Sequence record: NC_047829.1
Length of the DNA: 39,693 nt
Source of the DNA: Escherichia phage ST31
Direction: 5' to 3' (one strand)
Each line of letters starts with the position of its first letter. The first letter of the stretch is position 1. Positions 6,695 through 11,848 of the stretch are shown here, piece after piece. Under the pieces are notes generated by a model that saw only the letters and a program-made list of their open reading frames with translations, was not told the DNA's origin and did no database searches. A program made the position numbers and the translations under genes.

Positions 6695-6955
6695 ATGTTT
6701 AAGAACTTAATGTTCAACCGTTATTCCAATACCTTCCATCTGTCCAACAACCCGTTCGCATGTATTAAGCGCAACGAGAAGCTGGGCTACTTCGGGAAGG
6801 CCGTTAAGTTATCGCCTACAGTCTTCGCCTTGATTACTCCGGGAAAAGCTGAAGAGGCTCGCCAGAAGAAAGAGACCAGCGTACCTGTGGTCTACACTAA
6901 GTGGCCTCGCGTTCGTCTGTTCGTTGAGTTCGTGAAGGAGGTATTCAATGATTAA
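6695..6955 (+). CDS. Hypothetical protein (86 aa)
   Basis: ORF track; AAGGAGG RBS; gene 1.4-1.8 region of T7 map. Confidence 0.55.
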   Translation: MFKNLMFNRYSNTFHLSNNPFACIKRNEKLGYFGKAVKLSPTVFALITPGKAEEARQKKETSVPVVYTKWPRVRLFVEFVKEVFND

Positions 6956-7388
6956 GGTAGGGGATGTTGTGCGCTACGCTGGGACGCATAGTCAATTTAT
7001 TGGCCGCGTCGATGGTAAGGTTCTTAGCGTATGTAACTCAGGGGACTCAGTAGAGGTGGAATGGCCGGGGTTTATTGATCCAGTTAGACACGGTAAAGCC
7101 GCACTAATTATCACCAATACTGTTCAGGACAAACCAGAAGTCCGTGACGACGGTGTATACAAGCCGTCCCACTATCAGGTCTTTGACGGCGTGGAATCCA
7201 TTGAGATTATCGCCCGGTCCATGACTGTCAGTGAGTTCCGTGGTTTCTGCATGGGTAACGTCCTGAAGTATCGACTCCGAGCTGGTAAGAAGTCAGAGCT
7301 GGCTACTATGGAGAAGGACCTGAACAAAGCAGCCTTCTATCAGGAGCTGTTCGACCTGCATAAAGATAAGTGCTATGACTCCAAGTAG
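6948..7388 (+). CDS. Hypothetical protein (146 aa), possibly DUF3310-like
   Basis: ORF track; C-terminal PSHY..IE.I...GN.LKY..R..K pattern reminds me of DUF3310; from memory only. Confidence 0.55.
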   Translation: MIKVGDVVRYAGTHSQFIGRVDGKVLSVCNSGDSVEVEWPGFIDPVRHGKAALIITNTVQDKPEVRDDGVYKPSHYQVFDGVESIEIIARSMTVSEFRGFCMGNVLKYRLRAGKKSELATMEKDLNKAAFYQELFDLHKDKCYDSK

Positions 7389-7466
7389 CTGGTGCTTTAG
7401 GCAGTGGGTCTCAACCGGGAATGTGGACTACCTGTCCATGTACCATATGTGGAAGGAGAAAGGACT

Positions 7467-7625
7467 ATGAGCCTTGAGGAAAAGAAATACATCGTGGAGC
7501 TTGAGGGTCGCGTTCAGGCCTTCGAGGTTCCGGTGTACGCAAAGTCTCTTGAAGAGGCTACCCTGAAGTCCCAAGAGTATGAGGACGCTGGGTTTGTGGT
7601 CGGACGGATTCGTCCTGAGACCTAA
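7467..7625 (+). CDS. Host RNA polymerase inhibitor (T7 gene 2 homologue)
   Basis: 52 aa from ATG 7467 (GGAAGGAG RBS); [13 protein letters not shown]...[11 protein letters not shown] matches T7 Gp2 FEVPIYAETLDEA...PAGFEVTRVRP as recalled; track ORF 7404 has an N-terminal extension I do not favour. Confidence 0.85.
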
Positions 7626-7643
7626 ACTATCACTGTAGGACAG
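7621..7643 (+). promoter_or_regulatory. Phage RNA polymerase promoter (variant CACTGTAGG)
   Basis: AAACTATCACTGTAGGACA; one substitution from the consensus core. Confidence 0.6.
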
Positions 7644-7682
7644 ACGTCCAGTTCGTAACTTTAAATTAGGAGATTTACACCA

Positions 7683-8381
7683 ATGGCTAAAGAGCAACTG
7701 AAGACTTTCACCACTCCGGTAGCTGGTATCGTTGAGCCTTACGCATGGCTGAACAAAGCAGACACCAAGTTTAATGAGCGTGGTGAGCATAAGGTTAACC
7801 TGACATTCGACCTGAGCAACCCGAAGGTCCGTAAGATGATTGATGTCTTACAGAAGATTCACGACGATGCGTATGCGAAAGCACTCGCAGACCACGAGAA
7901 GAACCCACCTCAGGTTCAGCGTGGCAAGAAGCCTATTGAACCACGAGAAGGCGACATGCCGTGGATTGAGAATGGTGATGGTACTGTTACCCTGAAGTTT
8001 AAATGCTTCGCGTCTTACCTGAAGGATGGCAAGTCAGAGCCTATCGTATTACGGTTCTACGACACCGATGCTAAGTTAATCCGTGACGTCCCGAATATTG
8101 GCGCTGGCTCCAAACTGAAGGTCAAGTTTAAAGTCCTGCCGTTCAAGTGGAACGCTGCGACTGGTGCAAGCGTTAAGCTCCAGCTTGAGTCCTGCCTTCT
8201 GGTAGAACTGAAGGAATGGAAAGGTGATGGTGCTGGTGGAGATGGTGGCTGGGGTGGTGATGAAGACCTTGGCACTGGCTACAAAGCGTCAACCGATGGT
8301 GACTTCGGGTCTGATGACTTCAGTGACGATGGTTCCGAAGGTGGTGACGACTCTAACTCTGGTGGCGATTACGACTTCTAG
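7683..8381 (+). CDS. Single-stranded DNA-binding protein (T7 gene 2.5 homologue)
   Basis: 232 aa; RGKKP, NGDGT, GSKLKVK, GASVKLQLES blocks; acidic C-terminal tail ending DYDF. Confidence 0.95.
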   Translation: MAKEQLKTFTTPVAGIVEPYAWLNKADTKFNERGEHKVNLTFDLSNPKVRKMIDVLQKIHDDAYAKALADHEKNPPQVQRGKKPIEPREGDMPWIENGDGTVTLKFKCFASYLKDGKSEPIVLRFYDTDAKLIRDVPNIGAGSKLKVKFKVLPFKWNAATGASVKLQLESCLLVELKEWKGDGAGGDGGWGGDEDLGTGYKASTDGDFGSDDFSDDGSEGGDDSNSGGDYDF

Positions 8382-8833
8382 TGGCCCAATGGTCTGCAAA
8401 ACGGGGGCACTCTGTGGGTGCCTACCGCTCTGGACTTGAAGCCAAGAACCAGCAGTGGCTGGAACAGAACGGCGTCAAAGCGGAGTACGAAAGCCATTAT
8501 ATCAACTATGTGATTCCGGCTTCCGACCACAAGTATACACCAGACTTTATCCTTCCTAACGGTATCATCGTGGAGACCAAAGGTATCTTCGATAGTGATG
8601 ACCGTAAGAAGCACCTTCTGGTACGAGAACAGCACCCAGAGTTAGACATCCGGTTCGTGTTCTCAAGTTCCCGCTCCAAGTTATACAAAGGGTCTCCGAC
8701 CACGTATGGCGCATGGTGCGAAAAGAACGGCTATAAGTATGCCGATAAGTTTATCCCGGTTGAGTGGCTGCGTGAGGCGACTGTACGTCTGCCTTCAGGT
8801 ATCCTCATCCCCAAGAAGAAAGGAGTTAAGTGA
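8381..8833 (+). CDS. Endonuclease I, Holliday junction resolvase (T7 gene 3 homologue)
   Basis: 150 aa; YTPDF.LPNGI.VETKG, DRKKHLL.REQHPELDIR.VFSSSR.KLYKGSPT blocks. Confidence 0.95.
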   Translation: MAQWSAKRGHSVGAYRSGLEAKNQQWLEQNGVKAEYESHYINYVIPASDHKYTPDFILPNGIIVETKGIFDSDDRKKHLLVREQHPELDIRFVFSSSRSKLYKGSPTTYGAWCEKNGYKYADKFIPVEWLREATVRLPSGILIPKKKGVK

Positions 8834-9303
8834 TGACTCAGAAATATAAAATTAAAGTTAGCGCCTACGGGTGGCCTAAAGATACTATCGTCACAAAATG
8901 TGCGAAAGACCCATCACCAGTCCTTGGAAGGACTCTGGTGGAATCCTCCGAGCGTGGCGACTACAAGCACGGTAGCGCGGGTCCTAACACGCAGCCTGAC
9001 GGAATGTGGGGAGCATGGGTTTTAAATAAATATCTTGAGGAAATTGTAGAGGATAAACCTCAAGTCCTGCCAGCCTCAAGTGTCCCTCCTGTCACAGTTA
9101 AACGTGAAGTCCTGACCATCAACAAGATTGGTGTAGGTCAGACGTTCATCGTCCACGGTAAGCCTGACGAAGTGTACGTGAAGATTAGCAACTCTCACGT
9201 CTTCAACCATAAGTTGCTCCAGATGCACACGACTGACGCACAGCGCTTCCAGTCACATCTGAATCTGGTCGTAGTAGAGCTGGTGGTGTACAATGGTAAG
9301 TAA
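8830..9303 (+). CDS. Hypothetical protein (157 aa) inserted between endonuclease I and amidase
   Basis: ORF track; AAAGGAG RBS; start overlaps gene 3 stop and stop overlaps amidase start; T7 has no gene here. Confidence 0.6.
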   Translation: MMTQKYKIKVSAYGWPKDTIVTKCAKDPSPVLGRTLVESSERGDYKHGSAGPNTQPDGMWGAWVLNKYLEEIVEDKPQVLPASSVPPVTVKREVLTINKIGVGQTFIVHGKPDEVYVKISNSHVFNHKLLQMHTTDAQRFQSHLNLVVVELVVYNGK

Positions 9304-9751
9304 GGTTCAGTTCAACCCACGGTCCCGGACTGACGCTATCTTCGTTCACTGTTCGGCTACCAAGCCAGATATGGACATCGGGGTAGAGACCATCCGTATG
9401 TGGCATAAGCAGCAAGGCTGGCTGGACGTAGGCTACCACTTTATCATCAAGCGCGATGGCACTGTGGAAGAGGGTCGCCCGGTCAATGTCGTAGGGTCAC
9501 ACGTTAAGGACTGGAACTCCAAGTCCGTAGGCGTCTGCCTTGTAGGTGGAATTGACGCTAAGGGCAAGTTTGAAGCTAACTTCACTCCAGCCCAGATGGA
9601 CTCCCTGCGCAACAAGCTGGCTGACCTGAAGGCCCTGTATCCTCAGGCAGAAATCAAAGCACACCATGACGTAGCACCTAAGGCGTGTCCAAGTTTCGAC
9701 TTGCAACGCTGGTTGACTACCAACGAACTGGTCACTTCCGACCGTGGTTAA
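9293..9751 (+). CDS. N-acetylmuramoyl-L-alanine amidase / T7-lysozyme-like RNAP inhibitor (gene 3.5 homologue)
   Basis: 152 aa; DAIFVHCSATKP, GWLDVGYHFIIKRDGTVE, VGVCLVGG, HHDVAPKACPSFDL, C-terminal NELVTSDRG. Confidence 0.95.
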   Translation: MVSKVQFNPRSRTDAIFVHCSATKPDMDIGVETIRMWHKQQGWLDVGYHFIIKRDGTVEEGRPVNVVGSHVKDWNSKSVGVCLVGGIDAKGKFEANFTPAQMDSLRNKLADLKALYPQAEIKAHHDVAPKACPSFDLQRWLTTNELVTSDRG

Positions 9752-9775
9752 TAAACTCTAAAGGAGAACAACTCA

Positions 9776-9991
9776 GTGATTAAACTTATCGAATTTCTTG
9801 GTCGTCTGGTGGTGCGTGGTTATCGTCGTGCTGCGGTACTGGAACGAAAGGTAGAAAAGAAGACTGCTGACGGTGCGGCTGAGGCTGCTGCTCTGGCTGA
9901 CAAGCTGACCATTGCGTCACTGGAAGCTGGCATGAAGGCACGTCAAGCTGACACCAAAGCTGACCAGTTGGCCCAGTTCTTCAAAGCCTAA
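9776..9991 (+). CDS. Hypothetical protein (71 aa), probable GTG start
   Basis: ORF track; AGGAGA RBS before GTG 9776; alanine-rich helical product. Confidence 0.45.
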   Translation: MIKLIEFLGRLVVRGYRRAAVLERKVEKKTADGAAEAAALADKLTIASLEAGMKARQADTKADQLAQFFKA

Positions 9992-10009
9992 ACTATCACC
10001 TTAGGGATG
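9987..10009 (+). promoter_or_regulatory. Degenerate phage promoter-like sequence (CACCTTAGGG)
   Basis: AAACTATCACCTTAGGGA; two core mismatches; may be weak or inactive. Confidence 0.35.
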
Positions 10010-10054
10010 GGACCGTGAGTCCTGTCCCTTTGTTCGCATTTGTGATTAAGAAAT

Positions 10055-10133
10055 GTCTCCATAGCTCAAACGGTAGAGCGGCGGGTCGTGATGGCCTATT
10101 GCGATTAGGGTTCGAATCCCCGTGGAGACGCCA
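10055..10133 (+). tRNA. tRNA-like element (candidate tRNA or degenerate tRNA), anticodon unresolved
   Basis: Perfect 7-bp acceptor stem GTCTCCA/TGGAGAC then G-CCA; canonical D arm TAGCTCAAACGGTAGAGC; T loop GGTTCGAATCC; anticodon stem does not pair cleanly by hand (one fold gives loop GTCGTGA, anticodon CGT). Confidence 0.4.
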
Positions 10134-10144
10134 CTAAGGAGTGA

Positions 10145-11848
<1,704 letters not shown>

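Follow-up and report, generated by a model that had tools for sequence, protein, structure and literature searches.

A two-module accessory gene between endonuclease I and the amidase in Escherichia phage ST31

In T7, gene 3 (10257-10706) directly adjoins gene 3.5 (10706-11161), as the original prediction had stated; thus, a gene that stands between the counterparts of these two genes in Escherichia phage ST31 is extra relative to T7. Such a gene raises the questions of where exactly it starts, how widely it is shared among phages and what its product could do. We followed these questions in the window, which is the whole stretch of DNA analysed here (39,693 nucleotides, NC_047829.1), and in the relatives of the phage.

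Position, start and expression context of gene 3.2

The features around the gene are as follows, with positions in the window.

7404-7625, + strand: gp2-type RNA polymerase inhibitor gene, Pfam-confirmed, a neighbour of the gene 3.2 region
7627..7641, + strand: phage-RNAP promoter-like core (CTATCACTGTAGGAC), ahead of gene 2.5 and the nearest upstream of gene 3.2
7683-8381, + strand: T7-type SSB gene (2.5), Pfam
8381..8833, + strand: endonuclease I gene (gene 3), PF05367, E 2.8e-81, Pfam
8820-8825, + strand: ribosome-binding site AAGGAG of gene 3.2, within the last endonuclease I codons, 7 nt before the ATG
8833..9303, + strand: gene 3.2, 156 codons plus TAA, from the ORF list, the conserved ATG and PHROG 16385
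9293-9303, + strand: 11-nt overlap of the gene 3.2 end with the amidase start (ATG at 9293), read from the sequence
9293..9751, + strand: Amidase_2 gene (3.5), PF01510, Pfam
9987-10008: next phage-RNAP promoter-like site, before gene 4

The + strand frame 8830..9303 in the ORF list is open between the endonuclease I gene and the Amidase_2 gene, and it had been read as a gene of 157 aa. A real gene does lie there; its start, however, has to be moved. In the junction alignment, the AAAGGAG, the spacer and an ATG aligned to 8833 are present in 18 of the 18 relatives, whereas the in-frame GTG at 8830 is unconserved and is replaced by GAA or GTA. Therefore, the gene starts at ATG 8833 and the protein has 156 aa. 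The ribosome-binding site that had been proposed is well founded in this conserved AAAGGAG. By contrast, the ATGA that had been described as an overlap at the gene start is not one, since ATGA at 8833-8836 is the ATG followed by the first base of the next codon; the endonuclease I stop (TGA 8831-8833) shares 1 nt with the ATG (TGATG), and K1F-type alleles in the junction alignment have a true ATGA stop/start overlap. The 11-nt overlap at the other end was correctly described and is conserved in all of the Kayfunavirus relatives aligned, so the final codons of gene 3.2 double as the translation-initiation region of the amidase. The overlaps with both neighbours are thus conserved, in agreement with the earlier view of a coupled gene. 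At the preceding junction, endonuclease I itself starts at a GTG (8381-8383, TAGTGG, overlapping the gp2.5 stop), and an ATG stands there in 6/6 relatives compared.

For the expression context, a promoter-like pattern was built on the annotated CR44b promoter; the window contains 11 such sites, whereas 0.5 would be expected by chance. Around gene 3.2 the promoter-like sites are those at ~7627 and ~9993, and no terminator-like site was found in 7000-10500. Genes 2.5, 3, 3.2, 3.5 and 3.7 thus lie in one promoter-to-promoter block, which looks, from its sequence, like a single middle-class block. An Rfam scan of 7000-11000 gave no RNA family within gene 3.2. Gene 3.2 is a middle-class accessory gene of Kayfunavirus and a block-mate of the SSB, endonuclease I and amidase genes.

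Homologues and distribution

The gene belongs to a family that has already been annotated. In megablast searches, both 8000-10200 and 1-25000 match K1F-like phages (Kayfunavirus, Studiervirinae) at ~94-96% identity, and the matches include Hafnia phage yong1 and Escherichia phages P762, YZ1, K1F and EcoDS1. The ORF is an ortholog, or allele, of gp3.2 of K1F and EcoDS1 (3.01 in CR44b; PHROG 16385): residues 1-156 match positions 1-157 of the phrog_16385 profile (E 8.2e-95), residues 87-156 match the short form phrog_15211 (E 3.3e-40), and the gene has the family position, directly after endonuclease I and before the amidase with start and stop overlapping. The K1F, EcoDS1 and CR44b proteins are 72-79% identical to that of ST31 over their full length, and their genes likewise stand between genes 3 and 3.5 with the same overlaps; the C-terminal module and the linker are the same, whereas the loops of the N-terminal module differ, and EcoDS1-type alleles have 7 aa more in the linker than ST31. 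The name gp3.2 is used in K1F and EcoDS1, 3.01 in CR44b and 'hypothetical protein' elsewhere; both PHROGs are labelled 'unknown function', and the literature found on gp3.2, K1F, Kayfunavirus and accessory genes consists of genome-annotation tables that call gp3.2 hypothetical. Gene 3.2 is therefore already known as an annotated hypothetical, and a function is assigned to it in no database or paper found. The original prediction had missed this annotation, the start 3 bases downstream and the presence of two modules that evolve very differently; what we add is the corrected start, a domain map and the evolutionary contrast between the core and the head.

The absence of a recognizable motif, which had also been noted, is upheld by the searches. 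Pfam gave no family for gp3.2 at E values up to 10, SH3b-type wall-binding families included; NCBIfam and PDB sequence searches, with the single sequence and with the profile, gave no match; and four members of the gp3.2 family matched no defence family in PADLOC-DB at E values up to 1. Ten proteins with other N-terminal modules matched, in Pfam and PHROG, only two unknown-function PHROGs, via the shared core.

We then mapped how far the family extends. A search of 5.8 billion proteins returned 255 homologues, the best of them 97% identical, and among the matches listed most gp3.2 homologues are carried by contigs of ~39-40 kb. A second profile search gave 44 proteins, and those on long contigs come from genomes of ~39-41 kb. 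In an exhaustive profile search, 18 clusters were recovered among 1.84 billion representatives, 17 of them gp3.2-like proteins or fragments and one, P0134, a spurious match to a 1872-aa tandem-repeat protein. Searching 50,697 phage records with tblastn limited the matches to Kayfunavirus-like genomes and one Providencia phage, and the gene occupies the Kayfunavirus position in 219 phage records. No host or prophage copy was found by blastn in E. coli genomes (n = 5,426), and there is no paralogue elsewhere in the window. As far as such comparisons reach, gp3.2 proteins occur in two T7-like lineages and nowhere else. The gene was suspected of being long established, which its presence at the same position throughout Kayfunavirus and after endonuclease I in a distant Providencia-phage-like lineage supports.

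The distant lineage (PSTCR2 and the loci L011 and L012) also bears on the age of the two junctions. There the gene directly follows endonuclease I with an ATGA overlap, and two or three more small genes stand between it and the amidase. The adjacency to gene 3 is kept and that to the amidase is not; thus, the linkage to gene 3 is older than that to gene 3.5. The gene 3.2/amidase junction is also occupied in PH1061, where an HNH endonuclease gene (L003, 1760-2131) lies between gene 3.2 and the amidase and starts at the position that the amidase start has elsewhere, 11 nt upstream of the gene 3.2 stop. A homing-endonuclease gene seems to have been inserted at the junction.

A frozen core and an exchangeable head

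gp3.2 is a putatively cytoplasmic protein of 17 kDa, for which the structural models predict two small SH3-like β-barrels with a proline-rich linker between them. No signal-peptide-like or hydrophobic segment was noticed by eye. The parts are as follows.

8833..9051, + strand: head of 'type A' (residues 1-73), with an invariant scaffold and hypervariable sites; the predicted fold is an SH3-like barrel of five strands
9052..9090, + strand: proline-rich linker, residues 74-86 (...KPQVLPASSVPPV), from the alignment and AF2 pLDDT <50
9091..9300, + strand: core module, residues 87-156, modelled as a basic SH3-like barrel; equals the whole 74-aa gp3.2 of SH4 and Dev2

The core is the conserved part. 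It is nearly invariant within Kayfunavirus, and the second lineage is ~30-35% identical yet shares the motif Y-x3-SNSHxFN-x4-QMHTT-x3-RF (residues 115-139), which is invariant or nearly so in the alignments of both lineages. The calculated pI is 9.5 with a net charge of about +3, and the core of the Providencia-like lineage has a pI of 8.3. In the full-length AF2 run the C-terminal half has pLDDT <50. Modelled alone, with an alignment that took in both lineages and is shallow, the core reaches a mean pLDDT of 78 and 84-94 in its central part, and all five models agree on a barrel of five strands in which a short helix precedes the last one. A BFVD fold search with this model returned the gp3.2 family, then unannotated phage proteins of 60-85 aa, and no annotated protein. 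Endopeptidase chains also occur among the structural matches; most of them are short, with 118-134 residues, and their descriptions name catalytic domains, so that wall-binding modules are probably not what was matched. We also considered an HNH or ββα-Me nuclease, as the H...N...H spacing of SNSHVFN...QMH might suggest, and rejected it because the segment agrees with neither the HNH profile nor the metal-finger pattern.

The head is modelled with more confidence, with five strands at pLDDT 89-96 over residues 1-70; its best Foldseek matches are SH3 and PsaE domains, with E values no better than 0.12. Both modules have the same predicted topology of five short strands as SH3-like small barrels in general (SH3, PsaE, KOW of EF-P and L2, FeoA, Tudor and CarD-type). 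Across 110 type A sequences, the invariant scaffold of the head consists of GWP, TIVTKC, DP, LVE, G-Y-HG and QP-GMWGAWV. In the same set, 18 sites have an entropy of >2 bits with 8-18 different residues each (positions 9-12, 16, 28, 30-31, 33, 39, 43, 49, 51, 64-67 and 72). The linker also varies in length between alleles, by insertions of 7-10 aa in the alignment, and P0094, P0099, P0120 and P0121 have an extra module of 65-70 aa inserted at this point.

The contrast between the modules is clear in the Nei-Gojobori estimates over seven alleles. For the core (residues 87-152) dN/dS is 0.12, and a sliding window gives pS values of 0.2-0.45. With such substantial synonymous divergence, the conservation acts on the protein and not on the DNA. 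A constraint at the nucleotide level, from a hidden promoter or an RNA element, was likewise rejected, because synonymous sites vary normally and the promoter-like sites lie outside the gene. The type A head (residues 1-73) has a dN/dS of ~0.5. Its 18 hypervariable sites show pN 0.59 and pS 0.62, but these sites were picked for their variability, which makes the near-equality circular, and divergence is near saturation, so relaxed constraint fits as well as diversifying selection. The remaining head sites have pN 0.11 and pS 0.53. The pS of the head (~0.55) is also far above that of endonuclease I (0.08), and the value for the amidase is 0.20; thus, the head alleles are much older than the present backbone. 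Old head alleles in a younger backbone are as expected for a cassette that is moved by recombination and kept diverse.

Exchange of heads is visible in the distribution of forms. A core-only gp3.2 of 74-76 aa is found in SH4, Dev2, GA2A and Penshu1. The 74-aa proteins of Dev2 (Cronobacter) and SH4 (Citrobacter), at the same position and with the same 11-nt overlap, are ~80% identical to residues 87-156 of ST31 gp3.2 and are without the N-terminal module and the proline-rich linker. Core-only forms account for 13 of the 22 IMG/VR loci and ~45% of evenly sampled phage records. YZ1, whose backbone is ~94% identical to the window, has a core-only gp3.2 as well. Type A heads occur in 53 of the 219 phage records (about a quarter), natural in-frame deletions take out most of head A in P0124 and P0150, and at least six further N-terminal modules, unrelated in sequence, are distributed as follows.

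Head B: IMM-002 and PH1061
Head D: P0126 and P0142
Head E: P0125
Head F: P0128 and CR8-like
Head G: P0130
Head H: Providencia-like lineage
Two further head types: P0175; P0177

Double-headed proteins of the A+B and A+D types exist. When the head types were compared with the core by hhalign, the likeness was limited to 17 columns of the first strand (L-T-x-x-D-L-x-V-G-x-x-Y/F), at probabilities of 18-42%. A separate observation concerns the head of the metagenomic protein P0177, which matches the first ~70 residues of a separate 117-aa gene of PSTCR2 (L004, 2798-3151) downstream of the gp3.2 homologue; thus, modules are exchanged between gp3.2 fusions and genes that stand apart from gene 3.2.

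Possible roles of gp3.2

From the architecture and the evolutionary pattern, and from these only, we tentatively read gp3.2 as a modular adaptor for host interaction or counter-defence rather than an enzyme, a possibility to which we give somewhat less than even weight. The C-terminal barrel, being nearly invariant, basic and often carried alone, would be the functional core. It would probably dock on a conserved partner via its invariant polar and aromatic surface (SNSH-x-FN...QMHTT...RF), and candidate partners are components of phage replication or recombination and conserved proteins or nucleic acids of enterobacteria. The head would be an optional, exchangeable specificity module, the loops of which diversify on a fixed scaffold. 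Its most likely task would be to bind a host factor that varies between strains (a protein of defence or of the stress response, for example) or to escape recognition by it, and it would thereby bring this factor to the partner of the core or sequester the factor from that partner. Some points weigh against the adaptor. The basic core and the DNA-metabolism block fit a nucleic-acid-binding role equally well. In a compact genome, the heads might also be mere in-frame passengers instead of specificity domains. Relaxed constraint fits the hypervariable sites as well, and the model of the core, with its shallow alignment, is of moderate confidence.

The architecture may be likened to known cases. 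A conserved anchor is combined with a swappable variable module in the receptor-binding proteins of phages and in the internal proteins of T4. By analogy, gp3.2 would resemble these proteins (the T4 internal proteins with their conserved targeting sequence) in having one frozen module and one that is exchanged and diversifying. The location, size and fold differ, however; gene 3.2 is middle-class, lies among DNA-metabolism genes and is not a late structural gene. A bolder and rather doubtful version of the adaptor would have a frozen 70-aa SH3-like dock on a conserved hub and shuffled SH3-like heads that capture or evade strain-specific immunity, with the 3/3.5 junction as a site for counter-defence cassettes. 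The hub of such a dock might be the replisome, where gp2.5 and gp4 have acidic tails (...DF) to bind to, or a conserved host machine.

The adaptor would matter because K1F-like phages are in development, for therapeutic use and for engineering, against E. coli with capsules and its relatives, and genomes that are otherwise nearly identical differ at gene 3.2 and at few other places. If the head decides which strains or defence systems are overcome, the gene would be a compact determinant of host range after adsorption and a natural engineering site, the modularity of which is already proven in nature. If gp3.2 is instead a cofactor of DNA metabolism, the replication and recombination module of T7 has an optional extra component.

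This last role is the main alternative to the adaptor. gp3.2 may be a nucleic-acid-binding accessory of phage DNA metabolism with heads of secondary importance, in which a basic barrel of the Sm, KOW, Tudor or chromo type binds to a nucleic acid (DNA or RNA) or to the acidic tails at the C-termini of gp2.5 or gp4, and modulates recombination, junction resolution or replication together with endonuclease I. The pI and charge of the ST31 core point in this direction, as do the same block with SSB, endonuclease I and primase and the start/stop overlap after endonuclease I, which is kept in both lineages even where the gene is apart from the amidase. However, T7, T3 and most Studiervirinae perform the same DNA transactions without gene 3.2, the swappable and diversifying heads are left unexplained, the Providencia-like core is weakly basic and the structural matches are generic. 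We regard this role as unlikely, though worth keeping in mind.

An accessory of the amidase is very unlikely. In this case gp3.2 would be an SH3b-like partner that binds the cell wall or the amidase, is made in a fixed ratio to gp3.5 through the 11-nt overlap and tunes lysis or the inhibition of phage RNA polymerase by the amidase. The overlap is indeed tight and conserved in Kayfunavirus. Lysins commonly bind the wall with SH3-type domains, which also speaks for such a partner; in lysins of Gram-negative hosts, wall-binding domains are unusual. Against it, there is no SH3b-type match in Pfam, the matched endopeptidase chains are probably no wall-binding modules, inspection by eye gave no segment of the signal-peptide or hydrophobic kind, and the gene stands apart from the amidase in PSTCR2, L011 and L012 (by two or three genes) and in PH1061 (by the HNH gene).

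There is also little reason to see gene 3.2 as a known T7-group gene in diverged or displaced form, the finding that was named at the outset as the one that would refute an extra gene. Small T7-group proteins diverge fast enough for sequence methods to miss them, and the same barrel fold is found in many small uncharacterized phage proteins. At the profile level, however, the C, A, B and H modules had no match with an E value below ~1 when compared by hmmsearch --max with all six-frame T7 ORFs of 30 aa or more; the clusters from the exhaustive search were, with one exception, gp3.2-like; tblastn reached only Kayfunavirus-like genomes and the one Providencia phage; and the BFVD fold search returned no annotated protein. 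Least credible of all is a largely functionless filler in a recombination hot spot, kept open by the amidase initiation region: the last codons do overlap the amidase start and the head is dispensable in nature, but purifying selection covers the whole 70-aa core well beyond those codons, the core motif is invariant across lineages that otherwise have diverged far in this domain, and the head scaffold is itself under purifying selection and has a confident fold.

Three minor observations concern the flanks of the block that contains gene 3.2. First, the ORF of the gp2-like RNA polymerase inhibitor runs from a GTG and encodes 73 aa, with a Pfam match that begins at residue 27, and 52 aa have been reported for the inhibitor of a related phage. 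An internal Met (MSLEEKK...) gives exactly this length, so the start is probably near 7467. Second, the preceding gene (6948-7388, + strand) encodes a 146-aa protein with DUF3310 (E 4e-21) over residues 70-132 only. Its first ~69 residues (MIKVGDVVRYAGTH...) resemble, by eye, the 'V-G-x-x-Y/F' first-strand pattern of the barrel modules of gp3.2 relatives. Lastly, a tRNA-Thr gene (anticodon CGU) is predicted at 10055-10133 (+ strand), downstream of the promoter-like site (9987-10008) and ahead of the primase/helicase start (10148), from an ARAGORN call and an Rfam match to RF00005 (36.7 bits, E 2.9e-5). To our knowledge, tRNA genes are unusual in T7-like phages. This one coincides with an 88-nt stretch that is absent from most Kayfunavirus relatives, in agreement with megablast matches that cover 96% in two pieces; a coverage of 100% is reached only by 22664UKE3-2 and 22664BS1.
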